Positions 6,062-42,668 are shown, counted from the stretch's first letter. The stretch is 64,000 bases of DNA from Alphaproteobacteria bacterium (GCA_017464685.1 JAFTYO010000008.1:53820-117819); one strand, 5' to 3'. Notes: generated by a model not told the origin, from the letters alone. A program made the numbers and translations.

Positions 6062-7441
6062 CTATCCCCATACACTCTTCTTAGTGCATGTCTTCTTATC
6101 AGATGATAGCGTATATCCTGATTGGCAAGATTGGAGACATTTAAAAGTAAGAGTCTGATACGGATACTTACAGCTATAACAGCTACCCGCACCTGTCGGA
6201 CATGAATTAATCACCCCTCCAGTACAAGAAGAACAGTCACCAACATAATCAGGATCTTCCACACAGTAGTTCAACCCCCCTACTATTCCTTTCTTGTAAC
6301 CTGCCGGACAACTATAATCCTTGTATCTTTTTAATGACTCACCACTACAAGTTCCTCCGTCAACCGTGTCAATATACCCCTCGCAGTGCTCTCCTGTAAG
6401 AAGGTTTGGGTCTGTATTATTGCTGGTATATTGATATAAGCTTGGGTTACACAATTGCTTACAAGTTCCATTTAATGAACAATAACCAGCTGTACAACCG
6501 GAAGGTTCATAACATCCTGAAGAGTCAGAGCATACAGAACCCGGATTAGCACTTGTACATGCCAATTCTGAATCATATGTACAAGCTCTCTCACAACCTG
6601 TACCGGCAGCATTTTTTTGATAACCATCTTCACAATTAAATCCGGAATATTTGGTAGTCAAAGAACCGGCGCAATCTTTACCTGATGTACTATAATATCC
6701 GGTACATTTTTCGGATGATTCATTTGTACTTGCGTATTCCGGCAAATCAGGAGAACCTATATAATATTTATACACATCAGGATCGCAAATTTTTGCACAT
6801 TCATCAGTGGTTTTACAATATCCTGAACTACAATTAAATCCAGAATATACAGTAACCTGAGAACCTGAACAATCCCCACCGGATGTGCCTACGTATCCGG
6901 TGCAACTTCCGGTTAATGAACTAATATTGGCAGGTTTATTATTTTGACTATATTTATATACACTGCCATCACAGACATTATAACAAGCCGTGCCCGATTT
7001 ACAATAACCTGTTTTACAATTTGTTGGAGAAAAACACGTATACGCATCTTCTCTACATTCAAAATTTGTATAAGTTGTTTCGCATGTTTGTTTATCTTTA
7101 TAATCACAAACCACAGCGCATAATTTGAAGTTTTCATCACTGGGGCATGTTACAATTTTTGAACATGAAGAATCAAACTCAATATTTGTAAAACCTAATG
7201 CCTCGCAACTGACCACATTTCCGGCAACACATTTTTTATAATTTTGATTATACGGACAGTAAAGATATTTTGTACAACCATCTACATCTGTGTTAAAATA
7301 TCCGAGTTTTTCACAGTCAATAGCCGTCTGGCTGCTCGGAGTGCAACTTTCGGTTTCACCGGAATCAACCACACAAACAGTTGCATATACTGTTGAAGAC
7401 ATCCCCACAAGGCATAACAAAGTTAATATAAATTTTTTCAT
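6062..7441 (-). CDS. Secreted cysteine-rich repeat protein, paralog 1 (unknown function)
   Basis: The track ORF runs 6062-7453. I prefer the ATG at 7441 (MKKFILTLLCLVGMSSTVYA), because the GGAG inside the MEFA extension sits 6 nt upstream of it. It has a Sec signal peptide and very many Cys in repeated modules (C.GY..TS.G.C.G....Y.gF.C..GY.K). I recognise no known family. Confidence 0.75.
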   Translation of the reverse strand: MKKFILTLLCLVGMSSTVYATVCVVDSGETESCTPSSQTAIDCEKLGYFNTDVDGCTKYLYCPYNQNYKKCVAGNVVSCEALGFTNIEFDSSCSKIVTCPSDENFKLCAVVCDYKDKQTCETTYTNFECREDAYTCFSPTNCKTGYCKSGTACYNVCDGSVYKYSQNNKPANISSLTGSCTGYVGTSGGDCSGSQVTVYSGFNCSSGYCKTTDECAKICDPDVYKYYIGSPDLPEYASTNESSEKCTGYYSTSGKDCAGSLTTKYSGFNCEDGYQKNAAGTGCERACTYDSELACTSANPGSVCSDSSGCYEPSGCTAGYCSLNGTCKQLCNPSLYQYTSNNTDPNLLTGEHCEGYIDTVDGGTCSGESLKRYKDYSCPAGYKKGIVGGLNYCVEDPDYVGDCSSCTGGVINSCPTGAGSCYSCKYPYQTLTFKCLQSCQSGYTLSSDKKTCTKKSVWG

Positions 7442-7483
7442 AGCAAACTCCATAAAAATATATCGCGATTTTTACATACATTG

Positions 7484-7584: not shown

Positions 7585-9171
7585 CTATAGGTTATGGTTT
7601 TCATATTCTTGGAGATCTGCACACCTATTTGTATCCATTGTATAAATACCAGCGTTTTGTAGCATTTCTCTTTGTCCAGATATAAACTTGTTAGTAAACG
7701 TAGTATTTACCATATTGAATATATCTTTCTCACCTTTACAATACTCAAGGCTACCGCCGCCACCACCACCATTGTTCATGCTTCCTGATGTAGGTGGATA
7801 TACAGTACCTGTACAAGGCAGTGCTGAGTAATATGTATCATACCGAACCTTCCCTACCCACTCAAATTGTCCGGCATCGTTAAATTGATATTTGTTACAC
7901 CAAAGATCAACAAACGTGCCACTGGCACCAGAAGGGGTACACGGAATTGGAGTATCGTCAGGGAAACAATAGCTACAATGTTCCATATAACACTTTAAGA
8001 TGTTTTTGTTCAAGTCCAGTATATTAACAATTCCATCACCGCAGAATGTTTTTTCTGTTGCTGTCGGAGTTATCAAGCCTGCTGCTTCACAACTGCTATA
8101 TGCCGGTGTGCAAACACCATTGTACATAACAGCTTTTCCATGCGGACAATTACATATGCCACAACCGTTTGCATCAACATTTATCAATTCCGATGCATCT
8201 TCACTACATTCAGATTCGGTTACATAGCCTGTTTTACAGGTTGAAGGAACATAACACTCATCCAGATCTACGGTTGTATCAATATCACAATTAGAATGAA
8301 GATTTCTATCCAAACACTCTTGTTTATCAACATACGGACAAGTATCAACAACACAAGCTGTTTTGGCTGCGTTTTTCCGATATCCGGGCTCACACTCAAA
8401 ATCAGCATATCTATTTATGCCCTCACCGGAACAGTTGCCGTCAGAGTCTTTCAAATAACCCAAACAAACATCATCTGACATAATTGCATTTTCAATTTGT
8501 CCGGCAATAGGATACATCTCCTCATCACAAAGAGGCTGACATCTTGATTCCATTTTACAGTAGTTATCATAACAAATATAGTCTGCATATCTGAGCACCA
8601 CATCACCGGTGCAACTTCCTTGAGAGGTGCCGATATATCCCACACATTCATCTATCATTTCAGCGTTTTCAATCTGGTCCGAATAAGGATAATCGGTTTC
8701 ACTGCAAACAATGTTACAACCTGTACCGGTATCACAATATCCAACTTTACATCCGGTAGGAGCATAACAATTGTCAGATGATGAACACGATGCCCCCATG
8801 TGACGTTTTTCGCACAACTCTTGATCAACATAACAAACCGTAGCGCATAATGTAAGTGAGGCATCATTAGGGCATTCAACAATTTTTGAACACCATTTAG
8901 ATTTGTCGAGACTGTTAAAACCATACTGAGCGCAATCTACACCACTCGTACCATATACACATTTTTTATATTCAGGATCAAAAGGACAATAAATATAATC
9001 CAAACAACCGGTAACATCAGATTTTGAATATCCGAGAGTTGTACAGTCACCCGATGGATTTGGATTATCAAGACAACTATCATCTCCGCCGTAATCTTTC
9101 AAACAGGTAGCACCATATGCAACCTGAGATATACCGATAAGGCATAACAAAGTTAATATAAATTTTTTCAT
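7585..9171 (-). CDS. Secreted cysteine-rich repeat protein, paralog 2
   Basis: The track ORF runs 7585-9183. I prefer the start at 9171 (MKKFILTLLCLIGISQVAYG), preceded by the same GGAG. Its N-terminal module (C..LGY..sDV.GC..YiYCP....YKKCV then C...GF.....s.CSKIV.CP.D....LCA) is collinear with paralog 1. A poly-Gly tract lies near the C-terminus. Confidence 0.75.
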   Translation of the reverse strand: MKKFILTLLCLIGISQVAYGATCLKDYGGDDSCLDNPNPSGDCTTLGYSKSDVTGCLDYIYCPFDPEYKKCVYGTSGVDCAQYGFNSLDKSKWCSKIVECPNDASLTLCATVCYVDQELCEKRHMGASCSSSDNCYAPTGCKVGYCDTGTGCNIVCSETDYPYSDQIENAEMIDECVGYIGTSQGSCTGDVVLRYADYICYDNYCKMESRCQPLCDEEMYPIAGQIENAIMSDDVCLGYLKDSDGNCSGEGINRYADFECEPGYRKNAAKTACVVDTCPYVDKQECLDRNLHSNCDIDTTVDLDECYVPSTCKTGYVTESECSEDASELINVDANGCGICNCPHGKAVMYNGVCTPAYSSCEAAGLITPTATEKTFCGDGIVNILDLNKNILKCYMEHCSYCFPDDTPIPCTPSGASGTFVDLWCNKYQFNDAGQFEWVGKVRYDTYYSALPCTGTVYPPTSGSMNNGGGGGGSLEYCKGEKDIFNMVNTTFTNKFISGQREMLQNAGIYTMDTNRCADLQEYENHNL

Positions 9172-9214
9172 AGCAAACTCCATAAAAATATATCACGTAT
9201 TTTTACATACATTG

Positions 9215-10112: not shown

Positions 10113-11870
10113 CTATGAGCAAGTTCCGTAGTCTTCATCTACACCCGTACAAGTTTTTGTAAAGGTGCCACTGCACTCAGACCTTGGAGTACCCGAGCAA
10201 AGCTTGGTGTAACATACTTTACCAATTGTGGGGCTTATAGGGACATACAGACCGGAATCTTTATCTACATTACTATAATCATCATAATCATAGTATCCCG
10301 CAATAGCACAATCTCTTATGTACCAACACCCGTTGGACCCTTGTCCACATCTATAATTAATGTAAGCCTTGATACAATCAGTTTCTGTTTCATATGTGCA
10401 TTTACATTCACCATATACCACCCATCCTTTTGCAGTACAAGTGGGTGTGAAATCTTTATCACAGGTAGCTTCCGGAACACCTTCACAAATGTTTTTGTAG
10501 CAAGTTTTTCCCATTAGCCCTACTTTTTGGGTAAACATATAAACACCCGAATATATATCTATATCATCTCTTGCATCATAATCATACATGCCGGCAGCCT
10601 CACAAGTTTCATAAAACTTATGTTTTTCTTCGCAACAAGCCTTTATTTCACCTTTATTCGTTGCGTACAAATAGCAGTTTTGATAATTATATTCATCCGT
10701 AGCAGAACATGTGTACTGATAAGGAGTTTCGGAACAACTAGAATATTCAGAAGAGCAATATCCGCAACCATTGCTATCTTGTCCGGCAAGTTTTGTGTAA
10801 AAAAATTCTCCGCTGCCACATTTATCAACATAGGTTATATCGGTTTGAACACAGCCCTCTACACTGGTATGATAACCTTGAGCGCATCCTTCAGGTTTCC
10901 AGCAACCGTTACGACCTTGAACACAATTAGAATATTTGTTAAAACGCAAGCACCATTTTTTGGTAGGATATGGACAATCATCAGACTTTTCACAAAACAG
11001 ATATTTAGAATTAAAAATACATTTCATACCTTTGGTACCATCAGAACAAAGCCCGTCCCCCTTATCCAGAGTTGTATACCCAAGGGCTTGGCAATCGGTA
11101 GTGGTGGTAGGTGTTACGCTACAAAAATATCCGGCCAAATTTCTATTACCTGAAACAGGACAAATTTCAGTTCCGCAAGAATAACAATATCCGAGACCTC
11201 CGCCTCTGTCTACATTATCCAACATACGCGTACAACCTGTCGAGTTCTCTGAACAAGGTTCCGTCGTCCAACTGTCTGCACAATCGCAAAAGCTATAAAA
11301 TGATTTTCCGGTACTATCCGTACATTTTGATGCCAATTTGGATTCTTTTAGCCCTTTTTCCTTGCAATCATAAGGGTAAAGAGTTTCCGAACATCCGCAA
11401 GATTTGTAATGAGGAGTTCTATCTGCCGGATCAACACACGAATCAGCAGCAGAAGGATATGTTCCACTATATTCACCACAGCTTTCAAAAGGATAAACTC
11501 GGGTGTTGCAATAAGTATGTTCGGCAGCACAACCGCAAGTGGCATCATAATCTCCCCTGCATATATAATCATTGCTCGGCATAGCATAATTACCCGATTT
11601 ACAGGTACATTTATAATACGTCCTTCCGTTTTTCTTACATGTTTCAGAATTATAATTTGAAGGGCAAGGTGTGGTTCTGGTATATCCATCGCAATCTGTA
11701 ACAACCTCTCCGACCATGCACCCATCTCCGGCTAACACTCCGGGTAAAAAACAAACTTTTGCATCTGCATTGTAAGGATACAGCGACAATAATAAAAAAA
11801 GACAAACTGCACGCAATTTATACATACCGAATAACCCTAAAAATTTAAGCTGTTTTAAAGAGTATACCAT
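10113..11870 (-). CDS. Secreted cysteine-rich protein, paralog 3 (more divergent)
   Basis: 585 aa with a hydrophobic N-terminal signal; a later start at 11825 (MYKLRAV...) is possible. It is extremely Cys-rich and shares the C..LGY...D and GC..P.GC..GY modules with paralogs 1 and 2. It also carries an internal duplicated module (C.aAG.YDYD....D..SG.Y.....iGK.CY...C). Confidence 0.7.
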   Translation of the reverse strand: MVYSLKQLKFLGLFGMYKLRAVCLFLLLSLYPYNADAKVCFLPGVLAGDGCMVGEVVTDCDGYTRTTPCPSNYNSETCKKNGRTYYKCTCKSGNYAMPSNDYICRGDYDATCGCAAEHTYCNTRVYPFESCGEYSGTYPSAADSCVDPADRTPHYKSCGCSETLYPYDCKEKGLKESKLASKCTDSTGKSFYSFCDCADSWTTEPCSENSTGCTRMLDNVDRGGGLGYCYSCGTEICPVSGNRNLAGYFCSVTPTTTTDCQALGYTTLDKGDGLCSDGTKGMKCIFNSKYLFCEKSDDCPYPTKKWCLRFNKYSNCVQGRNGCWKPEGCAQGYHTSVEGCVQTDITYVDKCGSGEFFYTKLAGQDSNGCGYCSSEYSSCSETPYQYTCSATDEYNYQNCYLYATNKGEIKACCEEKHKFYETCEAAGMYDYDARDDIDIYSGVYMFTQKVGLMGKTCYKNICEGVPEATCDKDFTPTCTAKGWVVYGECKCTYETETDCIKAYINYRCGQGSNGCWYIRDCAIAGYYDYDDYSNVDKDSGLYVPISPTIGKVCYTKLCSGTPRSECSGTFTKTCTGVDEDYGTCS

Positions 11871-11911: not shown

Positions 11912-12433
11912 TTATTGTACTCGTTCTTTCAATTCCAACACATAATTAATGACTTTGCTTTTATCCCAAGTTTCACTTCCTCTCAAACGCCCCACTTCTT
12001 GACCGTTAGTATTAATAATTACCGTATGAGGAGTGGTAAAAATCCCGAAATCGGCGGATAAATCATTATTCTCTTCAACATAAAACTCCAAATCGGCAGC
12101 TCCGTATCTTTTTAGGAAACGACTTTGTTCACCGGTATCAAACCATTCTTCTTTTGGAGAAATCAGAATCAGACGAACACCCTTATCTTTTACTTTGTTA
12201 TGAAAATTGTTAAGGCTTTTAAGTTCTTTTATGCAAGGCGCACAAGTTTTTGACCAAAAATGGGCCAAGACAAAATCTCCCTTAAAATCAGACAGTTTGA
12301 AACTTAGGCCACTTTGATGCATGATTTTGCTTTGCGGCAAGCTTCTGGGTTCGGAATAAATGTTTATGGCCGCATTTGAAACCGCAGAAAAAAGCATTAA
12401 AAAAACTAAAAGAACAATAAGTTTGCTTTTCAC
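11912..12433 (-). CDS. TlpA/ResA-family periplasmic thiol:disulfide oxidoreductase
   Basis: 173 aa with a signal peptide and a thioredoxin-fold active site (FWSKTCAPCIKE, a CxxC motif). Confidence 0.8.
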   Translation of the reverse strand: MKSKLIVLLVFLMLFSAVSNAAINIYSEPRSLPQSKIMHQSGLSFKLSDFKGDFVLAHFWSKTCAPCIKELKSLNNFHNKVKDKGVRLILISPKEEWFDTGEQSRFLKRYGAADLEFYVEENNDLSADFGIFTTPHTVIINTNGQEVGRLRGSETWDKSKVINYVLELKERVQ

Positions 12434-12522
12434 CTGTTAAAATCCTTAAAATTGCTTTGTAATTAAAATTGTTTTTCAATATAATCTTTTTAAACTCGCT
12501 TACAATAAAAAAAGGTTAAAAA

Positions 12523-12657
12523 ATGAAGTTTGTTTGTAAAATTTTTATAAGTTGTATATTGTGCGCAGGTATTTTAAGTTTATCTGCTTGTGGCAAAATA
12601 TCAGACCCGAAACCGATTGATGGTTCGGGATATCCTCATACGTATCCGAAATATTAA
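12523..12657 (+). CDS. Small lipoprotein (44 aa), unknown function
   Basis: Below the ORF-track size cutoff. My translation is MKFVCKIFISCILCAGILSLSACGKISDPKPIDGSGYPHTYPKY, with lipobox LSAC. Its stop lies 10 nt before the vWA start. Confidence 0.55.
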   Translation: MKFVCKIFISCILCAGILSLSACGKISDPKPIDGSGYPHTYPKY

Positions 12658-12667
12658 GAGGTGTTGC

Positions 12668-13357
12668 ATGGAAAACAATAATATGAATGATGATATAATC
12701 CCATATGTCGAATTTGCCGATAATGCTAATGAACGTACCCCTTGCGTCTTAGTGCTTGATTGCTCCGGCTCAATGCGTGGAGAACCTATTTCCCAGCTCA
12801 ATGCCGGATTAAGCGCTCTCGAAAAAGAATTAAAAGAAGACATTGATGCCAGTTCACGTGTACAAATTTTAATTATTAAAGCTTATGGTAAAGACGAAGT
12901 TGTGGTCAGTTCAGATTGGGTTGATGCCATGAATTTTACCGCTCCCACAATGGAAGCAGGTGGTTTGACCCCTTTGGGAAAGGCTATGGAATTGGCTTTG
13001 GAAAAAATTGAAAGCCAGAAAAACTTGTATGATTCGTGCGGTGTGACTTCAAAACGTCCGTGGATTTTTTTAATCAGTGACGGAGAACCCACTGATTACG
13101 GTTGGGAGCAAGCAGCAAAAAAATGTCAAATCGCTCAACAAAATAAAAAAGTGGTGATTCATGCTGTCGGAACTCAAGGTGCAAATTTAGACAAGCTTGC
13201 CAAGTTTTCGCTTAATTCACCAAAACGTTTAACCGGATTAAAATTTACTGAATTTTTCTTGTGGCTCAGTCGTAGTGTTTCTTGCGTATCAAAGGCAGCC
13301 CCAAATGCCGACGAATTGTTTAATAATATTGATGCATGGAATGAAGAACAGAAGTAA
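12668..13357 (+). CDS. vWA-domain protein (TerY-like)
   Basis: The track ORF starts at 12590. I prefer the ATG at 12668 (MENNNMNDD...), preceded by AAGAGG. MIDAS motif: LVLDCSGSM ... GGLTPLG ... FLISDGEPTD. About 229 aa, the size of TerY-type vWA proteins. Confidence 0.8.
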   Translation: MENNNMNDDIIPYVEFADNANERTPCVLVLDCSGSMRGEPISQLNAGLSALEKELKEDIDASSRVQILIIKAYGKDEVVVSSDWVDAMNFTAPTMEAGGLTPLGKAMELALEKIESQKNLYDSCGVTSKRPWIFLISDGEPTDYGWEQAAKKCQIAQQNKKVVIHAVGTQGANLDKLAKFSLNSPKRLTGLKFTEFFLWLSRSVSCVSKAAPNADELFNNIDAWNEEQK

Positions 13358-14087
13358 AAACATAAAAGTGTTATCATCTTGTATCACAGGGGCTTATCAC
13401 AAATCGAAAAATTTACCCTGTCAAGATTATTGTAAACACATCAAAACCGACAACAAAATGGTTGCGGTGGTCTCTGATGGTGCCGGCTCGGCAAAGTTCG
13501 GTAAAATCGGCGCCAAAATTGTATGTGATACACTTTGTGATATTTTGATAAAAGCTTCCGCAACCGATATTAAGCAAAAAATTATTGATGCAATTGAAAT
13601 TTCTCGTCAAAAGCTTATTTTACATCGCTATAACAAAAGCAAAAAAGAGCTTGGTATTATAGATTTTGCCGCAACCGTAGTCGGTGTGTTCTACTACAAA
13701 AACAAAGGTCTCTTTTTTCATATCGGAGATGGTGCCGCTATTGCCATTTTAGGCGATGACAATGCCGTTATCTCCGAGCCCGAAAACGGAATTTTTTCTT
13801 GCGAAACATACTTTTACACCATGGATGATTGGAAAGACAGTTTGCGTTTTACAAACTTTGAAAAAGCAAACAGTTTAATGCTTATGACTGATGGTGTAAC
13901 AAGTTTTGCTTTTAAAAACGATTATGAACAACTGGAAAGAGGCTTTGTTTATCCCATAAACAATTTTTTACACAAATCTACAAATCAACTTAAAGCTATC
14001 AGAGCCTTAAATAACACACTTTCAAATCCAAAAGCACAGAAAATTAATCCTGATGATAAAACATTTTTATGGGTGGGATTAAAATGA
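13341..14087 (+). CDS. PP2C-family Ser/Thr protein phosphatase
   Basis: The track ORF starts at 13275. I prefer the ATG at 13341 (MKNRSKNIKV...), which overlaps the vWA stop by 17 nt. PP2C motifs are present: CQDY, VVSDGAGSAKFG, FHIGDGA and LMTDGV. Confidence 0.78.
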   Translation: MKNRSKNIKVLSSCITGAYHKSKNLPCQDYCKHIKTDNKMVAVVSDGAGSAKFGKIGAKIVCDTLCDILIKASATDIKQKIIDAIEISRQKLILHRYNKSKKELGIIDFAATVVGVFYYKNKGLFFHIGDGAAIAILGDDNAVISEPENGIFSCETYFYTMDDWKDSLRFTNFEKANSLMLMTDGVTSFAFKNDYEQLERGFVYPINNFLHKSTNQLKAIRALNNTLSNPKAQKINPDDKTFLWVGLK

Positions 14088-15541
14088 GTGAAACTGAGTT
14101 TACATATTATAACGCCATATTCAGTGACGGACATTTTGAACGAGAAAAACTCGGCGAACTCTTAAATAAGGGTGGTGCTGCCGGCAAAATATACAAAAGC
14201 ATAACGCACCCGCAACTGGTCGCAAAAATTTTTCATGACAAGAGCAAGAGCCAAACCAACAGACGCAAACTTGAAGCAATGCTCACAAATCGTCCAGCCA
14301 ACAATAAGCTCATTTATGATGGACAAGAAATTATACAAATGACTTGGCCGGAGGCTGTTTTGGAAGATGATCAAGGTTTTTGCGTAGGCTATTTAATGCC
14401 ATTCATTGATACACAAAAAGCAGTATCTCTGGATCATCTCATGCAAAAAGCGGTCAGAAAAAAACTTGGTTTATCCGAAAACTATGCAAATCGTCTGTTT
14501 GCTGCTTATAACATCGCCTCAATTGTTGCATCTCTTCATAAGTGTGGTCATTACATTGTTGACTTAAAACCTTCAAATGTGTTTGTTTACAAAGAAAATA
14601 TGATTGTTGTCATGTTTGACTGTGACGGGTTTTCCATAAAAGGTGATAATATTCGTTATCCGGCAGAATTTGTCAGCGAAGAATATATCTATCCCGAAGG
14701 AATGAGCCAAAACTGTGAACAAATGGGCGAAGAGCAAGATAAATTTGCTTTGGCAGTAATTTTATTCAAACTTTTAAACAATGGTATTCATCCTTTCTCA
14801 GGAACACCTCGAAAGCAAACTGATGAGATGCTTTCAATTCAAAGCCGAATTGAAAATTATCATTATGCTTACGGCTTATGGCCAGATTCTTATCAATCTG
14901 CGCATCCATACAGTATGCACGAATATTTTGATAAAAAAACTCTCAATATGTTTGATAGAGCTTTTGTGAAAAATCAAAAAAGACCGACTGCCAAAGAATG
15001 GCAAGAACATCTTGAAGAACTGTTTAAACAATTAAAAACTTGTAAAAATAATCCGGATCACATTTATTTCACATCTAAAGGTTGCGGACTTTGTGCAATG
15101 GAAGAAAAAATTAAACTAAAATTGCAAAAAATTAAAGATGAAAGTCAAAAGCCGGTAAAAATCAGAGGAATTGAACTCTCTGAACTTTCTAATGAAAAAA
15201 ACAAAGAAATAAAAAAACAAAAGCAACGAGAATTTATAAAACTTAATAAAATAGCTCTTATGGGAATTGTGTTTTATTTTGTTTTCTTTGCCACATTATC
15301 ATTTATCTTGAAACCATATCAGGCTGTTATCACTTCAAACGGTTTGTTTTTACAGCTTTTGCTAATAGCATTGTTTGTGCGCTTGCTGTACAAACTCTTG
15401 CAATTTTTACCGCAAAAATTGCCGCTTTTAAAAAATGATATACTACTTAATATGCTTAAAATTTATGCCTTGATAAACATTTTGATATCTTTTATCATCT
15501 TAAATGGTTTATCTTTTTCGATTTTATCACTCACGGAATAA
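14084..15541 (+). CDS. Membrane-anchored Ser/Thr protein kinase (triad kinase)
   Basis: The start at 14084 forms an ATGA overlap with the phosphatase stop. Kinase motifs: a GGAAGKIY Gly-loop, VAKIF lysine, the YIVDLKPSNVF catalytic loop, a DCDGF (DFG-like) motif, and KFALAVILFKLLNNGIHPF. These are followed by a C-x13-CxxC element, a Lys-rich coiled coil and about three C-terminal TM helices. Confidence 0.8.
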   Translation: MSETEFTYYNAIFSDGHFEREKLGELLNKGGAAGKIYKSITHPQLVAKIFHDKSKSQTNRRKLEAMLTNRPANNKLIYDGQEIIQMTWPEAVLEDDQGFCVGYLMPFIDTQKAVSLDHLMQKAVRKKLGLSENYANRLFAAYNIASIVASLHKCGHYIVDLKPSNVFVYKENMIVVMFDCDGFSIKGDNIRYPAEFVSEEYIYPEGMSQNCEQMGEEQDKFALAVILFKLLNNGIHPFSGTPRKQTDEMLSIQSRIENYHYAYGLWPDSYQSAHPYSMHEYFDKKTLNMFDRAFVKNQKRPTAKEWQEHLEELFKQLKTCKNNPDHIYFTSKGCGLCAMEEKIKLKLQKIKDESQKPVKIRGIELSELSNEKNKEIKKQKQREFIKLNKIALMGIVFYFVFFATLSFILKPYQAVITSNGLFLQLLLIALFVRLLYKLLQFLPQKLPLLKNDILLNMLKIYALINILISFIILNGLSFSILSLTE

Positions 15542-15690: not shown

Positions 15691-17079
15691 TTGAAAAAAT
15701 TAAACTCCATTATTTTATCAGGTAAAGAGGTTTTGCCGCTTATTGAAGGTGGTAAAGGTATTAATGCCAGCAACGGATACAGCTCGGGTGCATGGGCTCG
15801 GGAAAACTGTGTCGGCACATTTTCCGGTGTAACTCCCGATGTATTAGATAACAACGGTAATGTAATAATGGAAAGTTTTAAAACCAAAAAACGCTTAGAC
15901 AGGCATGAAGAGCTTGTTGAATATGCCATTCAGGGAGGAATTTCACAAGCCAAACTTGCATATGAAATTTCAGGCGGAAACGGACGTATTCATATGAATA
16001 TGCTTTGGGAATTGGCAGATTCACAAAAAATGATTGAATCTATTTTGGAGGGTTCTAAAGGCTTAATCAACGGTGTTACTTGCGGAGCCGGATTGCCTTA
16101 TCAATTGGCAGAATTAACCTCAAAATTCGGGGTTTACTACTACCCGATTGTATCTTCAGCCAGAGCTTTTCAAATTTTATGGAAAAGAGCATATGCAAAA
16201 TGTCCCGAATTTTTAGGCGGTGTGGTTTATGAAGACCCGTGGCTTGCCGGCGGTCATAACGGTTTATCAAATGCCGAAAATCCCAATGAACCCGAAGTGC
16301 CTTACAATCGTTTGGTTGAGTTAAGAAAAACATTACGTACAATCGGTTTGGAAAAAACTCCGATAATTTTAGCCGGTGGTATTTGGAACTTAACAGACTG
16401 GGAAGATTATATCGACAATCCCGAAATCGGCGACATTGCATTTCAGCTTGGAACTCGTCCGATGTTAACTGTTGAAAGTCCCATCAGCGATGCTTGGAAA
16501 CAACTGTTGTTAAACGTTAAAAAAGGTGATGTTATTTTGCAAAAGTTTTCACCGACAGGATTTTATTCCTCAGCAATTAACAATGCCTTTTTAGCCAAGT
16601 TGATTGAGCGTAAAAACAATGAAATTGAATATAAATCTGAGCCAGATGCCGAGTTTTCTTGTGCACTATCATTAAATGCAGCACGTTCGGTTTATATCAA
16701 ACCTCAAGATATGCAAAAAGCCCAAAATCAAATTGATGCAGGGTTGAGCGTAGTGCAAGAAACTCCGGATAATACGGTTGTGTTTTTAACTCCTGCCGAT
16801 TGGCAACAAATGAAAATTGATCGAGCCGAATGCGCGGGTTGTTTGTCACAATGCCAATTTTCTACTTGGTCAAAGGCAACACTTTCTACCGGAAAATTGC
16901 CGGATCCGAGAACATATTGTATCCACAAAACACTTTATGACGGCGGACACGGTGGTGATGTTCAAAATAATTTGATTTTTGCCGGACATCAGGTGTATCG
17001 TTTTGCCGATGATCCGATGTATAAGGAAGGAATTCCAACTACAAAAGAACTCGTTGAAGCTTTGTTAAGAGGAGAATAG
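15691..17079 (+). CDS. Nitronate monooxygenase / 2-nitropropane dioxygenase-family FMN oxidoreductase (long form)
   Basis: 462 aa with a TTG start preceded by AGAGGA. It shows TIM-barrel NMO-like motifs (PLIEGGKGI, GVTCGAGLP, GGHNG, ILAGGIW). The assignment is by motif recall only. Confidence 0.55.
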   Translation: MKKLNSIILSGKEVLPLIEGGKGINASNGYSSGAWARENCVGTFSGVTPDVLDNNGNVIMESFKTKKRLDRHEELVEYAIQGGISQAKLAYEISGGNGRIHMNMLWELADSQKMIESILEGSKGLINGVTCGAGLPYQLAELTSKFGVYYYPIVSSARAFQILWKRAYAKCPEFLGGVVYEDPWLAGGHNGLSNAENPNEPEVPYNRLVELRKTLRTIGLEKTPIILAGGIWNLTDWEDYIDNPEIGDIAFQLGTRPMLTVESPISDAWKQLLLNVKKGDVILQKFSPTGFYSSAINNAFLAKLIERKNNEIEYKSEPDAEFSCALSLNAARSVYIKPQDMQKAQNQIDAGLSVVQETPDNTVVFLTPADWQQMKIDRAECAGCLSQCQFSTWSKATLSTGKLPDPRTYCIHKTLYDGGHGGDVQNNLIFAGHQVYRFADDPMYKEGIPTTKELVEALLRGE

Positions 17080-30044: not shown

Positions 30045-31013
30045 TTAAGTGACTTCAGTAATTGCACGCAAGTTACCATCACGATTAATTTGTACAACCC
30101 TCAATTTATGGTGCATTTCTTCAATGGTTTTTGCTCTGTCAATAGTAGGATATGTATGCAAAATACGATCGGTAAAAGCCTGATAGGCGGCTTCTGAACT
30201 TTCGGCGTGAATGGTTGCTAAGCAGTTATCATGACCAGATCCCATCAGTTCCCATAAAGCTCCTGCGTTTGATGTTGAAATCTCACCACCGATAATAGCA
30301 TCCGGAGTAAAACGAACAACCAAGTCAATAATTTTCGAATAGTCCATATTATTTGTTTGTTCAGTACGAGATAAAACCAAATGCACTCTATTTGGATGCG
30401 GAACTAAAAGTTCTCTTGTATCTTCAATAGTCAATACTCTTTTATGAATATCCAAAATTTTCAATAAGTTATTTAAAAATGTAGTCTTACCGGTTGCGGT
30501 TGCCCCGCTAACCAAAATATGATCACCGCGTTTAATACTTAAAAGTAATCTTTCATACGGATCTTCAGGATCTTTAATATCCTTTAAAGGATTAATCTTG
30601 TGCAAAGATTTACCTTGTACCAATCCATATGCATCAAGTCCGAATGCAACTTCATCACTATGAATACGAATCGTTAATGCAACACCTCCGGTTAAATCAT
30701 CATTATCGTACATCACATTTCTGCCGGCAATTGCCGAAAAACGATGATCCCCGGGAATTGTCGCATAAACAACCGGCGATCCTTGTATCGGATCAAAGGG
30801 AAGCTCATAAGTGTTGGCTATAATATATAACAAATCTGTCAAATACTCTTTTGAAAGCTTTTCATCCTTATACATTACCCATGGAAAAGCTCTTTTACCG
30901 CGAAGTCTTAACCATATCTGTCCTGCTTTATTAATTGCAACTTCTTCTATATTTTCTTGGTTGTACCAATATGACAGCGGCCTTAATACCGATTCCAATA
31001 CTGTAAAACTCAT
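30045..31013 (-). CDS. virB11: Type IV secretion ATPase VirB11
   Basis: 322 aa with Walker A SGATATGKTTF, an Asp box (TIEDTREL), and a His box (GSGHDNCLATIHA). It is the last gene of the operon. Confidence 0.92.
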   Translation of the reverse strand: MSFTVLESVLRPLSYWYNQENIEEVAINKAGQIWLRLRGKRAFPWVMYKDEKLSKEYLTDLLYIIANTYELPFDPIQGSPVVYATIPGDHRFSAIAGRNVMYDNDDLTGGVALTIRIHSDEVAFGLDAYGLVQGKSLHKINPLKDIKDPEDPYERLLLSIKRGDHILVSGATATGKTTFLNNLLKILDIHKRVLTIEDTRELLVPHPNRVHLVLSRTEQTNNMDYSKIIDLVVRFTPDAIIGGEISTSNAGALWELMGSGHDNCLATIHAESSEAAYQAFTDRILHTYPTIDRAKTIEEMHHKLRVVQINRDGNLRAITEVT

Positions 31014-31028
31014 TTGTTACTCCCCCAG

Positions 31029-34000
31029 TTAAAATAATGTTGCTCCGGATCCTGCCGTCGAATTGCTTGACGGAGGTGCCACAACATCTCCCGTTGATGG
31101 TGGCGGTGTTGTAGCATATGATGGCATTTGTTTTGGTGTAGATTTCTTTTGAGGTTCGTCATCTATTAATGCAACTCCTTCAGGTTCAGCATTAGATGAT
31201 TCTCCCCCATAAACCTCTATTTTGCTTCCGGAAGAACCTCCACCGGCTTTAGGAAGGTCTTTTTTATCTTCTTTTTTACCCTCATTACCGTCAATCAAAG
31301 GTCCTGGAGCAACACTTTCTTCTGCTGCCTCTTCTCGCTCACGTGCTGCCGTTCTTATCCATAAATCTACCTTAGGATAAATAATTAATCTGGTACCTGC
31401 CGGAACATATGATACTGCGGCAATATTAGTTTTACTTTCCAAAATTTGGTTAAATATCTCATTCATCCCTGTAATGAAGTTTTGACGTGCATCGCTTGCA
31501 GCATCAGCTCGCGCATCTTCTGTTGAGCCACCATTTCCGTCAGATTTATTTTCACCCGCTGCAGTAACAAATGCCAATGCACTTGTGAGAGTAGATGTAA
31601 CAATCGGTAATGTATATTTTTTGAGCAATTGTTCATCAATGTATCCCAAAGCTCCAGCTCTACCTTGTGCATCACCGGTTTGTGCAGAAGCAAATTCAAA
31701 CGCAGAACCATCCGGACGGATCAATCTTTCCCATGTTATATTAACTCTTACGGCACTGCCTGTTCCGCCTCCTCCATTGAAACCGCCCATTGTTCCCATC
31801 ACACGACTACCTGCAGGAATAACAATATTACGTCCTACTTCGGCATAGATATTTCTTTCAACAATGGCTGTTACAGGCACATTTTCAGCACCGGACATCA
31901 ATGTCCTTGCTAACACGGCCGGAATTGGTTTATCTGCCAAAATCATCTCACTCATATCAACACGCCATGTAGAAATTTTTCTGGGCACACCATCCCAATG
32001 CGTTTGCATGCCATCAAATGCTTCTTTGCTAAACTGTGTCGAAATTTTACCGATAGCTAATTCACTTCTCCTTAAATTTTGGTTTGCATCTAATATTTGT
32101 GCTCGCATCGGATCATACCTTTCACCGGCACCAAACCCCCCTCCGGGTCCTAAATTATTTGGTTGATTTCCTGTTCCATAAGCAGCACCATCACCAAAAC
32201 TTCCGCTAGGAATAAACATTTTATCTGCAGATGTGTTCTTAACTTCTTCAATCCCGACTAAAGCCCCATCATTATCTATAATCAATCCATCAGGCATTTT
32301 TTTGCCTATCATATTACCAAGTTTATCTATTACATCATTGTTTTGTAATATTTCCCCTAAATAGTTGCCATCCGGTGTCAACGCAATACCAATTGCTTTA
32401 AGCCCATATTTACCAGTAGCTTTTTCTGTTTCAATTTGCTGACTTATTTTTTCAGCTGGTTCAGGGGCACTCAATTCGCCCATTTTAATCTTGGTATCTT
32501 CTTCCTGTGTCTGTGTTTTTATAACAGGTTTTTGAATATTATAATATTGCAAATAAAAAGCTTTGGCAAACATCTTACCTTTTTCATTTCTGATATCACC
32601 ATTACTGTCAATTTTTCCTATAACTGAGTTTGTATTATCTACTATATCTCCATTTATTTGCAACTCACCTATGATTTCATTACTACGATTACGGATAAAA
32701 TAGTCTCTTGCACCTCTTCCGATAATATTATATTCTTTATCAATCAAAAATCCTCTATCAGCTTTACCTAAACGATTCCCCGAAAATCCTACCACACTTC
32801 CACCTTGAGTCAGATATCCGATTGCTTTATTGTTTTCATCATAAATATAGACATCATATAGAGCATAACCTATCTCTTTTCCTTCTGATACAACCTCTCC
32901 ATTATGAGTTACTTTTGCCAAAACTTTATTTTCATTACTTATAACTTCACCTAACCGATTAACTCTACCAATAAAATTATTTTCTTTATCAAAAGCAAAT
33001 TTATACTTAAAGGCCATACCGATGATCTTCTTTTTGTTTTGAGCTACGATATTTAAATTAGGTAATACATAACCGACAATTTCATTGTCTATATTCACAA
33101 CTTTACCTGACAACAATACTCGTCCAATCATAACATCATCATAATTTATCACCGGATCAGATGTAACGACCGCTCCTTTGAATGTATTATTAGAATCATA
33201 AAGTCTGCCATCACTCCTTATACAACCTAAATCAGCTTGTTCATAATTTAATACTCGACCTAAGGCAGTCACTGTTCCAAGATTGTTACCTCCGAAATCT
33301 GTAACCAAGCCCTTTAGTGGAATAAAACTATTCACTATTTGTGTATCGGAAACAACTTGACCATTTGTTAAGACTCTTCCAATTACAATATCTCGACTAT
33401 TACGAACATCTCCTCTCGGACTTACGACTCCTGAAAACTCACATGAATCATTAACGACACCTCTAAAACCGACTAACTTACCGATAATCGAGTTATCATT
33501 TCCTATTACTGTTTCGTTTTCAACAACAGAACCTATCTTATTTAATTGAAAATCATAAACAATACCGTCTCTTCTTACATATCCGAGCATATTTCCGTTA
33601 ATACCTACAGCTATTTGATTATTTCCGGCATATCCTATAATAGGCATCAAATTATCTTTTACATCATTTGTACTTTCAACTGCTTGATATTCAGGTATTA
33701 TTTTAGCAATCACCGTACCTGAATTATTTATAACCAAGTTATTTTGACCCAAATGTCCTAATGATTCCATTTGAAGAGACATAACATAATATGGATCTAT
33801 GTTATACCCAATCAAAAGATTTTGTTCATCTATAAGTTGCCCGAATTGTGTAAGTTTAACTTGTCTCTCGGTGGGCATACCCGATATTTTACCATCTACA
33901 TCAACATAGCCTTTTGCTAATCCAGCTTGATCATATACTGTTGTCAAACCGATTGCATTTCCTGTCAAAATATTATCACTTGAATATACATATCCAAAAG

Positions 34001-35255
34001 GTGATACTTTATATTTGATATTTTCTTTATTAAAATCAGCACCTATAAAATTCATTCCCAATATGGTATCAGATAAATTTATAATTTGCATAGGCTCCAT
34101 TCCGGCTCCAAGCATTCTGCCAATGTTATCAAAAACATATTGTCCCTTCACATATCCTACCAAAGTTCCCTTTGTTGATACTGCGGATCCACTGCGTAGA
34201 GCTATCGCACTTAAATTACCTAAATAATCAAAAACAGGACCGGCATATGTCACTTCTCCTATAGGAGCACCATCAATATTATACACAATACCTCTGGCTC
34301 CCACACTTCCTATAACATCTGTTGTTTTGACAATTTTACCATCAGGAATGACACGTCCCAGATATTTTCCATTAAAATCGGTAGCGGTTGCCGATATTTC
34401 AATAAAATAACCTATTACTTTACCCTTTGTATCAATAATCTTATTATCTGCCCGTAATCTGCCTACTGTTTCACCTTTATTTATTACTTCTCCGTTATAT
34501 GATATAAAACCAAGATATTTACCATATGTGTCTATAGTATACCCTCCAGTAATAACTTTTCCTACTATTTGATTGTCTTTATTGTATACATAACCATTTG
34601 CGTGCACACTTCCTATTACCTTAGCATCAAAATCCGTAACTTTTCCACCGGGAGCAACGCTGCCTATAAACTCTCCGGTTAGTGAAACAACCATTTTAGA
34701 TGATACTAATTTACCATCCAATACATAATCTGTTCCTGTATTTTTATATGCATATCCCATTGCGGAAACAAAACCGATGTTTTGACCCTCTATACTCACA
34801 TATAGTCCGTCACCGGTTAAACGCCCAATTGTATCTCCTTCATTGTTATATATTAATCCCGGATATAATACAGCACCTATTATGTTGTATGAATCATCAA
34901 CAACTAAGGCATTTGGTAAAGTTTTACCGATAATTTTTCCTGTAGGAAGACGTACCGTACCATCATTATTTACCTTACCTAAAAACTTATTATCATTGCC
35001 AATTGCAATACCTTGCGGAACAACTCCACCAATAATTTCATTATTATTATTTACAATAAAACTGTCTGCCGTTACTTTACCGATAATATCATTTTGCTTA
35101 CCGATAACTGAACCATCAGGAATCACGGTACCTATTATATCACCATTAAAATTTATGGCTGTAATTTCATTTGCATATGCATTTGATGCCATGTATACCG
35201 TCATCAATATAAATAATCCGGCAATTTTTAATGTTTTATGTAACATATTCAGCAC
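31029..35255 (-). CDS. virB10: Giant VirB10-family protein: N-terminal hydrophobic segment, about 970 aa of short Gly/Ile-Gly repeats, TrbI/VirB10 barrel domain, and a Pro/Ser-rich acidic tail
   Basis: 1408 aa. The GTG start at 35255 lies 6 nt after GGAGGA. Residues ~1095-1302 carry VirB10/TrbI hallmarks: IPAVLARTLMSGAENVPVTAIVERNIY, IPAGSRVMG, RVNITWERLIRPDGSAFEF, GDAQGRAGALGYID and YVPAGTRLIIYPKVDLWI. Residues ~30-1000 are repeats of the form ..G..IG.V...G.V.... Confidence 0.88.
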   Translation of the reverse strand: MLNMLHKTLKIAGLFILMTVYMASNAYANEITAINFNGDIIGTVIPDGSVIGKQNDIIGKVTADSFIVNNNNEIIGGVVPQGIAIGNDNKFLGKVNNDGTVRLPTGKIIGKTLPNALVVDDSYNIIGAVLYPGLIYNNEGDTIGRLTGDGLYVSIEGQNIGFVSAMGYAYKNTGTDYVLDGKLVSSKMVVSLTGEFIGSVAPGGKVTDFDAKVIGSVHANGYVYNKDNQIVGKVITGGYTIDTYGKYLGFISYNGEVINKGETVGRLRADNKIIDTKGKVIGYFIEISATATDFNGKYLGRVIPDGKIVKTTDVIGSVGARGIVYNIDGAPIGEVTYAGPVFDYLGNLSAIALRSGSAVSTKGTLVGYVKGQYVFDNIGRMLGAGMEPMQIINLSDTILGMNFIGADFNKENIKYKVSPFGYVYSSDNILTGNAIGLTTVYDQAGLAKGYVDVDGKISGMPTERQVKLTQFGQLIDEQNLLIGYNIDPYYVMSLQMESLGHLGQNNLVINNSGTVIAKIIPEYQAVESTNDVKDNLMPIIGYAGNNQIAVGINGNMLGYVRRDGIVYDFQLNKIGSVVENETVIGNDNSIIGKLVGFRGVVNDSCEFSGVVSPRGDVRNSRDIVIGRVLTNGQVVSDTQIVNSFIPLKGLVTDFGGNNLGTVTALGRVLNYEQADLGCIRSDGRLYDSNNTFKGAVVTSDPVINYDDVMIGRVLLSGKVVNIDNEIVGYVLPNLNIVAQNKKKIIGMAFKYKFAFDKENNFIGRVNRLGEVISNENKVLAKVTHNGEVVSEGKEIGYALYDVYIYDENNKAIGYLTQGGSVVGFSGNRLGKADRGFLIDKEYNIIGRGARDYFIRNRSNEIIGELQINGDIVDNTNSVIGKIDSNGDIRNEKGKMFAKAFYLQYYNIQKPVIKTQTQEEDTKIKMGELSAPEPAEKISQQIETEKATGKYGLKAIGIALTPDGNYLGEILQNNDVIDKLGNMIGKKMPDGLIIDNDGALVGIEEVKNTSADKMFIPSGSFGDGAAYGTGNQPNNLGPGGGFGAGERYDPMRAQILDANQNLRRSELAIGKISTQFSKEAFDGMQTHWDGVPRKISTWRVDMSEMILADKPIPAVLARTLMSGAENVPVTAIVERNIYAEVGRNIVIPAGSRVMGTMGGFNGGGGTGSAVRVNITWERLIRPDGSAFEFASAQTGDAQGRAGALGYIDEQLLKKYTLPIVTSTLTSALAFVTAAGENKSDGNGGSTEDARADAASDARQNFITGMNEIFNQILESKTNIAAVSYVPAGTRLIIYPKVDLWIRTAAREREEAAEESVAPGPLIDGNEGKKEDKKDLPKAGGGSSGSKIEVYGGESSNAEPEGVALIDDEPQKKSTPKQMPSYATTPPPSTGDVVAPPSSNSTAGSGATLF
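31350..31973 (-). other. TrbI/VirB10 C-terminal barrel domain within the giant VirB10
   Basis: Coordinates derive from my residue count (aa ~1095-1302) and are approximate to about 30 nt. Confidence 0.75.
32256..35168 (-). repeat. Coding repeat region of giant VirB10 (degenerate ~9-17-aa units, core G-x-x-[IVL]-G-x-[VIL])
   Basis: Seen directly in the translation, e.g. NGDIIGTVIPDGSVIGKQNDIIGKVTADSFIVNNNNEIIGGVVPQGIAIGNDNKFLGKVNNDGTV. Confidence 0.8.
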
Positions 35256-40815: not shown

Positions 40816-41565
40816 TTACTGCGTTTTATTACGAGAAAGTGAATATCTTGTCACGGTAAAACCGATAGGATTATTTAACCTTTCATCATACTTAACATTT
40901 TTCTTACGATATGCTATCCTTAATGATGCCGTCCAATATTCAATCTGCGGAGAGGATGATGACGGATACATATCTTTTGTTTCATATTCAACCTGCCATA
41001 GACCACGCCCCAATTCATTAACGGTCATAATCCTGACAGATCTGGTTAAGCCCTTATTTTTAATGATACCAAGAGCCTTATTAGCTGTTTTATCTATAAA
41101 TGCCTGATATACTGCAGACGATGACATTTCTTGAATAGGCCCCCCCGGCATCCAACGAGACTCCATTTCACGAATATCATTGGAAAATGCACTGCGCATC
41201 AATACATATTCACGCACAAACACTTCCGTAATTTCTTTTTTATCTTCCATATTAGCAATCGGCCTAATATCATAAACTTGCTCTTGCTTATTTTCAAAAG
41301 TCAAAATAAAAGGCTCCAATCTATACAACGGCATTAATTGGGTAATGGCTAAAATAAGCACAAAATTGCAACACAAACTTACGGCCACGATAACTGCAAA
41401 TGCCCTTGCCGTCCATAAATATCTGCGCTCAGAAGCATTTACCACAATATCGTCAACCGGTTTTTTACCAGAAACAGGATTTCTTCTTATGTGTTGTGAA
41501 GAAGACATCTGCCTGTTGGGCAACATTCTTTGTTGTATGTTATTTACGCCTAACTGTTCAGCCAT
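40816..41565 (-). CDS. virB8: VirB8 (copy 1)
   Basis: 249 aa with an N-terminal cytoplasmic region, a single TM helix, and a periplasmic NTF2-like domain ending in the conserved NPIGFTVTRY motif. Confidence 0.88.
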   Translation of the reverse strand: MAEQLGVNNIQQRMLPNRQMSSSQHIRRNPVSGKKPVDDIVVNASERRYLWTARAFAVIVAVSLCCNFVLILAITQLMPLYRLEPFILTFENKQEQVYDIRPIANMEDKKEITEVFVREYVLMRSAFSNDIREMESRWMPGGPIQEMSSSAVYQAFIDKTANKALGIIKNKGLTRSVRIMTVNELGRGLWQVEYETKDMYPSSSSPQIEYWTASLRIAYRKKNVKYDERLNNPIGFTVTRYSLSRNKTQ

Positions 41566-41909: not shown

Positions 41910-42668
41910 TTAAAGAATTTCAACTTCTGTTTGAGAATATCTTGTTACGGTAAATCCAAGCGGATTCATTAATCTCTTTGACATAAACATACGCTCAGGA
42001 ACAAAAACAGCCACAATTGAAACTGTCCAATATCTTGTTTTTAACACAAATTCCCCCGTTGTATCATTTCGATTTTGGGGTGATAATTCATATGTTTTAA
42101 AATCCACTTTCCAAACCGGCGATTTTTCACCACCAACTTTACCTACCGAAATTATCTCTACATCTCTTATGATTTGCGTTTTTGAAGCATCTGCCAAATT
42201 TTTTTCTACCGTATTGGAAAATTCTGCAAAAATTTTATCTGATGATAAATAATTTATCATTCCTCCACCAAACCAACGGCTTTGCATTTCTCGTTCATCA
42301 CCTACTATAGAGTTGCGAATTATAACATATTGTCTTATAAAAAGCTCCATCATTTGCGGCGCTGACGGCATATTTGGTGATATTGTCTCATATCTGACCA
42401 TCTCTTCGGAATTACTCTGCCTGATTATTAAAAACGGCTCTACATGAACTTCAGATGTCAAATTAAATAATACCAGTGATGCACTTGTAAAAAACATCAA
42501 TGATAATATAGCAATAAAAGCAACAAATCTTGAAAGCCAACAATAATAGTTTTCTCTTGCTAAACTTCCCATAACATCAACATCAGTAATATAATTTGCA
42601 CTTTTCTTAGCAGATTGAGCTGACGTTAATGCTAATATTTCATTTGTTGAGCTTAATTGATTGTTCAT
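41910..42668 (-). CDS. virB8: VirB8 (copy 2, divergent paralog)
   Basis: 252 aa with the same architecture as copy 1 and a C-terminal NPLGFTVTRY motif. Confidence 0.85.
   Translation of the reverse strand: MNNQLSSTNEILALTSAQSAKKSANYITDVDVMGSLARENYYCWLSRFVAFIAILSLMFFTSASLVLFNLTSEVHVEPFLIIRQSNSEEMVRYETISPNMPSAPQMMELFIRQYVIIRNSIVGDEREMQSRWFGGGMINYLSSDKIFAEFSNTVEKNLADASKTQIIRDVEIISVGKVGGEKSPVWKVDFKTYELSPQNRNDTTGEFVLKTRYWTVSIVAVFVPERMFMSKRLMNPLGFTVTRYSQTEVEIL

Follow-up and report, generated by a model that had tools for sequence, protein, structure and literature searches.

Operons that encode a von Willebrand factor A (vWA) protein, a PP2C-type phosphatase and a Ser/Thr kinase are described in Escherichia coli as YegL-PphC(YegK)-YegI and more generally as TerY-P triads. 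YegI is an active inner-membrane Ser/Thr kinase that autophosphorylates on Ser and prefers Mn2+ over Mg2+ (Rajagopalan and Dworkin, bioRxiv 10.1101/819920). It has DSD instead of the DFG motif, crosses the inner membrane twice and lacks a sensor domain (10.1101/819920), and its autophosphorylation is reversed by PphC (10.1101/303594). Anantharaman, Iyer and Aravind (2012) defined the TerY-P triad, which consists of vWA, PP2C and a Ser/Thr kinase fused to a zinc ribbon (STK-Zn-ribbon) and is hypothesised to be a metal-sensing phospho-switch (PMC11090510). Here we analysed a stretch of 64 kb from an Alphaproteobacteria bacterium (GCA_017464685.1, JAFTYO010000008.1:53820-117819), referred to as the window, in which a four-gene operon of this family, headed by a gene for a very small lipoprotein, occupies positions 12523-15541.

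Modules resembling TerY-P, with an OB-fold kinase, were reported by Gao et al. (2020) to give stand-alone defence against T7-like phages, as summarised in two other papers (PMC7699616, PMC11090510). Others are embedded in CoCoNuT/McrBC systems (PMC11090510), and the Helicobacter pylori triad lies in an accessory island (PMC4978471). TerY-P / YegL-PphC-YegI triads occur widely. What they do physiologically is unexplained in E. coli as well, whose yegI and pphC genes show hardly any expression and for which, according to a paper from 2026, neither an inducing condition nor a role is known (PMC13232886). The initial annotation of the window stated that the triad has no experimentally established function, which is contradicted by the biochemistry of YegI and PphC and by the reported anti-phage modules.

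We consider it reasonably likely that the operon encodes a Ser/Thr phospho-switch of the TerY-P / YegL-PphC-YegI family that is inherited vertically and has become specialised in a clade of uncultured Alphaproteobacteria from gut and rumen. A phospho-switch with a housekeeping or envelope function fits the evidence better than an arms-race defence module, because the position is fixed, the expression signals are conserved, the vWA protein evolves slowly and some of the parts are specific to the clade.

A conserved operon behind a promoter-like site

The initial annotation described four closely packed genes on the plus strand, and their coordinates and geometry could be read straight from the sequence. 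The micro-lipoprotein gene (44 aa, with signal peptide and lipobox) is found at 12523-12657 and is followed, after a 10-nt gap that contains AAGAGG, by the TerY/YegL-like vWA gene (229 aa; ATG at 12668, TAA ending at 13357). The gene for the PP2C-type Ser/Thr phosphatase (248 aa) spans 13341-14087, so that its ATG lies inside the 3' end of the vWA gene with an overlap of 17 nt. The gene for the YegI-like membrane Ser/Thr kinase (485 aa) spans 14084-15541, and its start forms an ATGA with the PP2C stop. Searches with Pfam hidden Markov models upheld the three domain assignments of the annotation (VWA 6e-8, PP2C_2 1e-37, Pkinase 7e-12).

To see how widely the unit occurs, one genome per species was scanned, which gave 280 species genomes with a relative of the module. 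The best 80 of these 280 were retrieved and compared with the window proteins by tblastn; counts out of 80 below refer to this set, with gene order scored wherever the contig extends far enough. The closest relatives are metagenome-assembled genomes of gut and rumen Alphaproteobacteria from human, rabbit, reindeer, goat, yak, roe deer and chicken, and an identical kinase sequence is also present on metagenomic contigs. Named relatives are 'Candidatus Scatocola', which NCBI places in the Rhodospirillales, and 'Proteobacteria bacterium CAG:495'. We take the clade to be order RF32 in GTDB.

The four-gene unit, including the 44-aa lipoprotein, is conserved across these genomes. The same genes, order and overlaps recur in all 80 species genomes where the contig reaches, and the unit is therefore not a chance arrangement. 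In the relatives the lipoprotein and vWA genes are 10-27 nt apart, the vWA and PP2C genes overlap by 11-20 nt in 76 of the 80 loci, and the junction between PP2C and kinase is -4 or -1 in 59 of 82. PP2C is thus predicted to be translationally coupled to vWA via the 17-nt overlap.

Two alternative gene models were considered. Other in-frame PP2C starts exist at 13332 and 13305, and the gene caller took the latter, which would give an overlap of 53 nt. This upstream ATG was found in only 5 of the 80 loci, against 76 with a short-overlap ATG, and we therefore place the start at 13341. A longer vWA reading frame from GTG 12590 was likewise rejected, since it would share sequence with the lipoprotein gene and conservation of the N-terminus sets in only after ATG 12668, which has a good Shine-Dalgarno sequence.

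Upstream of the lipoprotein gene, a promoter scan gave a sigma-70-like promoter on the plus strand (TTGTAA-N17-TATAAT, 12457-12485, 10 of 12 matches). It is followed by a leader of ~30 nt that ends in the Shine-Dalgarno sequence AAAGGTTAA, and a leader of the form ACAA..AAAGGTTAA is also seen in relatives. There, the region between the divergent redoxin gene and the lipoprotein gene measures 73-112 nt, and a TTTGTA-N17-TATAAT box and the leader are found in most of 75 loci. This conserved position makes the lipoprotein gene the first of the transcription unit. Such a strong-looking promoter points to a steady, probably constitutive transcription of the module. A terminator scan 3' of the kinase gene found none.

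The divergent gene on the minus strand (11912-12433, 173 aa) encodes a TlpA/ResA-like periplasmic thiol:disulfide oxidoreductase with a signal peptide and a CAPC motif (Pfam Redoxin/AhpC-TSA; NCBIfam TlpA 3e-17, below the cut-off). It lies ~95 nt 5' of the lipoprotein gene in every locus where the contig reaches that far, and the block redoxin(-), lipoprotein-vWA-PP2C-kinase(+) has a constant order in all 80 loci to the same extent. An NMO-family gene comes next after the kinase in ~62 of the 80. In the window it spans 15691-17079 on the plus strand (called with a TTG start, 462 aa) and is weakly similar to FabK (TIGR03151, 3e-5, far under the cut-off). It was rejected as a member of the operon, being missing or relocated in ~15 of the 80 loci.

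The outer genes (YmdB, a Cys-rich reading frame, atp) are mostly not conserved in position across the 80 loci, and the block has therefore persisted through rearrangements on both flanks. As the initial annotation had noted, the neighbourhood in the window is of housekeeping character: within ~10 kb lie RadC, YmdB, the redoxin, the FabK-like NMO-family gene, the ATP synthase operon, PriA and PrmA. Integrases, transposases and known defence genes are lacking over this distance. Together with the fixed syntenic position, this does not agree with a site in a defence island.

The rates of evolution differ strongly between the genes. Complete copies of all six genes (redoxin, lipoprotein, vWA, PP2C, kinase and NMO) are available from 49 species, and among these the mean pairwise identity is 86% for vWA (138 of 229 columns invariant), 78% for NMO, 65% for the kinase, 58% for PP2C, 52% for the lipoprotein (signal peptide variable, mature part near-invariant) and 50% for the redoxin. 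In L006, the only locus that also holds atpD, vWA is 89% and the ATP synthase beta subunit 91% identical to its window counterpart, a nearly equal degree of conservation. The ranking of vWA over kinase over PP2C is also seen outside the clade. In four unrelated triads the identities are 52-56% for vWA, 36-44% for the kinase and 29-36% for PP2C, and for YegL, YegI and full-length PphC of E. coli they are 41, 28 and 28%. Since the vWA protein is the slowest to evolve both inside and outside the clade, it appears to be the constrained hub of the system.

Outside the clade, the order vWA-PP2C-kinase was found in all four unrelated lineages inspected, on an Azospirillum brasilense replicon (from a plasmid collection) and in E. 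coli, and the ATGA-type coupling recurs with this order in the four lineages. The assignment to the TerY-P triad made by the annotation thus holds: the window encodes a TerY-like vWA protein with a metal ion-dependent adhesion site (MIDAS), an adjacent PP2C and an adjacent Hanks-type kinase with a C-terminal Zn-ribbon, in the canonical order and as a recurrent unit. The settings of the four other triads are diverse: genes of a cyclic oligonucleotide-based anti-phage signalling system (CBASS) and a recombinase, a type VI secretion system (T6SS) cluster, a second kinase with ankyrin proteins, and a metabolic neighbourhood. Two of these loci, L086 (3449-8304) and L088 (2724-8427), have two tandem paralogous YegI-like kinases 3' of the vWA/PP2C pair, and in L087 (1517-4450), beside the T6SS cluster, two such paralogues flank the pair. 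The C-terminal domains of the kinases in these three loci are variable and include ankyrin repeats and sll0997_C. The triad of L086 stands beside a CBASS operon (SMODS, E2, patatin) and a serine recombinase.

The annotation also held that no other ter genes are present. Every protein of the Klebsiella terZABCDEF/terW/terX/terY cluster was compared by tblastn with the 64-kb window, and besides vWA, PP2C and kinase only a weak TerB match (5e-4) in a beta-flower repeat gene was found, so that linked terZABCDE(F) genes as in a classical Ter cluster are absent from it. A scan with PADLOC gave no match for vWA and PP2C and weak generic matches for the kinase (PD-T4-6, MkoA). The controls YegL and PphC from E. 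coli also gave none, and the PADLOC library appears not to cover the TerY family. In DefenseFinder the system of Gao et al. carries the name Gao_TerY.

Features of the four proteins

The vWA protein is cytoplasmic, and its MIDAS motif is intact as annotated (D31-x-S33-x-S35, T101, D138). Conservation is highest in the MIDAS region and in a C-terminal motif rich in Ser, FFLWLSRSVSCVSKAAP (aa 196-212), with the general form L.GL.F.ELF.WLS.S..S.SKAAP. Three serines of this motif, S201, S203 and S208, are shared with YegL. The classical ter plasmids carry three TerY copies, and the vWA protein is only distantly related to these (about 30-31% identity to TerY1-3). In PP2C the metal-binding Asp residues are kept (D29, D46, D130, D184, D238/239). 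Sequence searches of the PDB with vWA and PP2C gave no match.

The kinase domain comprises aa ~10-315, with a glycine loop GGAAGK, the ATP-binding K48, the catalytic loop IVD160-L-K-P-S-N165 and D179-C-D181 at the position of DFG; the kinase is of the non-RD type. It is followed by a Zn-ribbon-like motif, C320-x5-H326-x7-C334-x2-C337 (nt 15041-15094), of which all four residues are invariant. This motif aligns with that of YegI and occurs in all distant relatives inspected, and it is predicted to bind metal. The invariant cysteines of the kinase are C100, C180 and C320/C334/C337. An AlphaFold2 model of the kinase was obtained with a pLDDT score of 72.6, and its best matches in the PDB are PknB kinase domains, which confirms the kinase fold.

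The loop at nt 14618-14626 (aa 179-181), which would bind Mg, reads D-C-D(G) in the clade and in 11 of 12 distant relatives (P0124-P0145). The remaining relative has D-S-D, as does E. coli YegI, in which the Ser of this loop is autophosphorylated (10.1101/819920). The invariant Cys in the D-C-D loop might make the kinase sensitive to redox or metal.

Behind the Zn-ribbon comes a charged helical stalk and then a transmembrane (TM) region at aa ~388-482 (nt 15245-15529). The initial annotation had predicted about three C-terminal TM helices, and hydrophobic segments were indeed found at aa 388-410, 418-440 and 456-482, which AlphaFold2 models as helices. The C-terminal 140 aa are thus made up of the charged helix and three TM helices, and Pfam gave no OB-fold there. 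The distribution of Lys and Arg fits a topology with the N-terminus inside and the C-terminus outside, and the loops on the outer side have ~10 residues or fewer. The kinase is therefore predicted to have no extracytoplasmic sensor domain and to expose only ~10 residues to the periplasm. Within the TM region only ITSxG, G420 and Q424 are conserved, with ITSxG...Q at the periplasmic end of TM2.

When 1.84 billion cluster representatives were searched exhaustively, the kinase of the whole clade fell into one full-length cluster at 50% identity, and the TM tail is confined to that cluster. In all, 597 cluster representatives were related at E<1e-30. The next relatives are at most 46% identical and match only aa ~10-345, i.e., the kinase domain and the Cys/His Zn-ribbon. 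The C-termini of the distant kinases consist of Pro/Arg-rich linkers, at least one TM segment and varied domains (ankyrin, Sel1, SH3-like).

In the lipoprotein (MKFVCKIFISCILCAGILSLSAC followed by GK...), a Lys at position 2 and a hydrophobic core precede the lipobox L-S-A-C, whose Cys is residue 23. The mature peptide in the window is only ~21 aa long, C-G-K-I-S-D-P-K-P-I-D-G-S-G-Y-P-H-T-Y-P-K-Y. A dedicated small lipoprotein had been proposed, and such a gene was found directly 5' of the vWA gene in 76 loci. The 75 orthologues share the mature motif C-G-K-x-S-x-P-x-P-x-E-G-S-G-Y-P-H-x-Y-P-(R/K) after a variable signal peptide, with C, G, K, S, G, Y, P, H, Y and P being near-invariant. The invariant residues are encoded by varied synonymous codons (four for Pro, both codon families for Ser, three for Gly), which shows that it is the peptide, and no RNA element, that selection acts on. 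The codon pattern thus indicates that the lipoprotein is a real protein under purifying selection.

A search of Pfam gave no family match for the lipoprotein. A profile search gave 641 clusters at E<=10, and the 120 best of these are 40-51 aa long, except for one of 70 aa, and are all unnamed or 'hypothetical'. The LptM_cons motif was not found after the lipobox Cys: one of three members matched it weakly (E 0.41) and in the signal peptide only, and the other two gave no match. No reading frame with a lipobox lies 5' of any of the four non-clade triads that were inspected, and the annotation of the E. coli locus shows none either. By these searches, the 44-aa lipoprotein and the kinase tail of three TM helices occur only in the gut/rumen clade.

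A putative envelope phospho-switch and its alternatives

By analogy with E. coli YegI and PphC, the kinase would autophosphorylate and PP2C would reset it. The vWA protein may be the regulated output, as the proposal of Anantharaman et al. (2012; PMC11090510) and the conservation pattern suggest. In such a scheme it would be phosphorylated on the C-terminal Ser cluster S201/S203/S208, whose motif is assumed to be helical, and this could shift the MIDAS between low and high affinity for a conserved cellular ligand, much as in integrin I-domains. The allostery of integrin I-domains is well established. The lipoprotein, from its co-occurrence, could be a partner or co-sensor that acts on the periplasmic face of the kinase TM bundle. 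It is the best candidate for such a partner because the kinase lacks an extracytoplasmic sensor domain and the 21-aa lipopeptide is always co-encoded with it. Small membrane proteins or lipoproteins that regulate sensor kinases are comparable cases. That the lipoprotein is the missing extracytoplasmic sensor or regulator, and the operon an essential-like pathway from envelope to cytoplasm whose output is phospho-control of the binding of a conserved target by the vWA MIDAS, is a tentative proposal, to which we give perhaps one chance in several.

Several points weigh against this picture. The link between lipoprotein and kinase is conjectural, and the lipoprotein could be an unrelated passenger that shares the promoter. 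No report of vWA phosphorylation was found for any TerY-P system. The autophosphorylation sites S160 and S162 of YegI correspond to Cys180 and Gly182 here, so that regulation may differ. The single-sequence AlphaFold2 model of the vWA protein (pLDDT 40.6) is unusable, and that of the kinase is of moderate confidence only. Finally, being core and conserved is compatible with a role in defence.

Such a role would make the locus a stand-alone anti-phage system like the TerY-P type of Gao et al., where infection triggers the kinase and phosphorylation of vWA or a cell target blocks the phage or leads to abortive infection. The protection against T7-like phages reported in PMC7699616 and PMC11090510, the triads inside CoCoNuT/McrBC systems and H. 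pylori islands (PMC11090510, PMC4978471) and the relative L086 beside a CBASS operon and a recombinase are all in line with it. We nevertheless find it unlikely, as the module is fixed in synteny in all 80 species examined, its vWA protein, 86% conserved, evolves more slowly than the adjoining NMO-family gene and no defence or mobile genes are adjacent. Moreover, the kinases of the tested systems carry a C-terminal OB-fold according to PMC11090510, where the kinase here has a Zn-ribbon and a TM tail. Of the claim that the locus is a stand-alone sensing or defence module, then, the stand-alone part stands, given the lack of ter genes, and sensing is plausible, but defence fits poorly with the fixed synteny, the slow vWA protein and the lack of mobile genes. 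Two close database matches labelled as phage (83% identity, records of 11.7 kb and 4 kb) are unverified and were not accepted as phage carriage: the 11.7-kb record is an UNVERIFIED faecal contig with identical bacterial synteny, and the content of the 4-kb record was not read. The former (L089; GenBank MT836238.1, 'UNVERIFIED: Bacteriophage sp.', human faeces) has redoxin-lipoprotein-vWA-PP2C-kinase-NMO in the order of the window and is most likely a mislabelled chromosome fragment of a gut alphaproteobacterium.

The redoxin gene invites a different reading, a periplasmic pathway for redox, metal or oxyanion stress tied to the TlpA-like redoxin, in which lipoprotein and kinase would sense envelope redox or metal and the MIDAS or Cys180 would be the sensor. 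The redoxin is the sole neighbour that is never separated from the operon, with which it has a common control region of 73-112 nt, TerY proteins belong to tellurite and oxidative-stress clusters, TerY-P has been proposed as a metal-sensing switch (PMC11090510), and the invariant cysteines of the kinase would suit such a function. Yet a genome that rearranges slowly may keep the two adjacent by general synteny alone, the redoxin, unlike vWA, evolves fast (50% mean identity), and the four triads outside the clade have no redoxin neighbour. We give this reading little credence. A still more sceptical view holds that the lipoprotein is an unrelated envelope protein, e.g., LptM-like, that merely shares a promoter with an ordinary three-gene triad of the YegL-PphC-YegI type. 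According to the E. coli sorting rule, lipoproteins with Gly at +2 go to the outer membrane. Gly +2 would thus predict an outer-membrane location here, from where a tethered peptide of 21 aa could hardly reach an inner-membrane kinase; the triads without such an upstream gene (four outside the clade and the annotated E. coli locus) and the weak, sub-threshold LptM_cons match in the signal peptide (E 0.41) point the same way. This view is nonetheless quite improbable, since in 76 species the lipoprotein gene invariably heads the operon at a distance of 10-27 nt from vWA, its product co-appears with the clade-specific TM tail of the kinase, and the LptM motif is missing after its Cys.

The preferred reading, a vertically inherited phospho-switch, suggests a non-defence, housekeeping use of the module in the gut/rumen clade, which is perhaps the cleanest natural case for such a role. 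Three features are put forward as testable candidates that may help to explain the family: the vWA serines S201/S203/S208, Cys180 of the D-C-D loop and the GSGYPHxYP motif of the lipopeptide. If the lipoprotein did act as the sensor, the TerY-P / YegLKI family would gain a tractable input and its first physiological role outside defence.

Other features of the window and comparison with known systems

Adjoining the redoxin gene on its upstream side, a gene on the minus strand (10113-11870) encodes an extremely Cys-rich protein of 585 aa with a signal peptide and no match in Pfam or NCBIfam. Only some relatives have this gene, and its conservation is weak (24-47% identity). Beside it lie two open reading frames (ORFs) without Pfam matches, 6062-7453 and 7585-9183 (463 and 532 aa). 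All three may encode variable surface or secreted proteins. Further away, a VirB-type type IV secretion cluster occupies 30045-54101 on the minus strand. It comprises a VirB11-like T2SSE (30045-31013), a giant fusion of VirB10/TrbI with beta-flower repeats (31029-35255, 1408 aa), a protein of 1289 aa that has 8 such repeats together with DUF3659 and RHS repeats (35257-39126), CagX/VirB9 (39123-40802), two VirB8 paralogues (40816-41565 and 41910-42668), a 1427-aa ORF without a Pfam match (42684-46967), VirB4 (50401-52887) and a TrbC/VirB2 pilin domain (53115-54101), all on the same strand.

In the threonine phosphorylation pathway of the Pseudomonas aeruginosa T6SS, the Hanks kinase PpkA and the PP2C PppA are activated via envelope accessory proteins, the TagQRST lipoprotein module. 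The locus resembles this pathway in its kinase/PP2C pair, in having a lipoprotein among the envelope accessories and in its vWA domain, but only by analogy, as the accessory parts are not homologous. The vWA domain of the P. aeruginosa pathway, furthermore, is a periplasmic part of PpkA itself, fused to the kinase, and an FHA protein serves as the output, whereas no FHA or T6SS genes were found here.

The three-gene architecture of vWA, PP2C and kinase is shared with the TerY-P systems of Gao et al. The kinases tested there have a C-terminal OB-fold according to the description in PMC11090510, with which the present kinase was compared, and the kinase here has a Zn-ribbon, a stalk and three TM helices. 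Identities to the proteins of classical ter plasmids are low (~30% to TerY1-3, 28% to the PP2C and 26% to the kinase).

The closest described system is that of E. coli. YegL-PphC-YegI has the same order of vWA, PP2C and kinase, and the E. coli B strains even show the same ATGA coupling of phosphatase and kinase. YegI and the present kinase share the non-RD type, D-x-D in place of DFG, the Cys/His Zn-ribbon, C-terminal membrane anchoring and the lack of an extracytoplasmic sensor domain, and YegL shares the conserved vWA tail WLS.S..VS. The kinase here is, however, shorter (485 aa compared to 648 aa for YegI), its three predicted TM helices leave the C-terminus outside, where YegI makes two passes and has both ends inside, and its catalytic loop, DLKPSN, is more canonical than GDVNQNS in YegI. 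The locus further differs in the extra micro-lipoprotein gene that heads the operon, in a conserved near-consensus promoter where yegI and pphC are barely expressed (PMC13232886), and in being core across a whole clade.

Like the triad of Anantharaman et al. (2012), the locus has contiguous genes for a TerY-like vWA protein, a PP2C and an STK-Zn-ribbon. TerY-P triads are typically accessory, found within or beside DNA- or RNA-targeting, secretion or ter modules, on islands and plasmids, whereas the triad described here is solitary, chromosomal, syntenic and core. The TerY-P / YegLKI family itself is already known; what is new in this clade is a module that is core and promoter-driven, with an added lipoprotein and a kinase tail of three TM helices.

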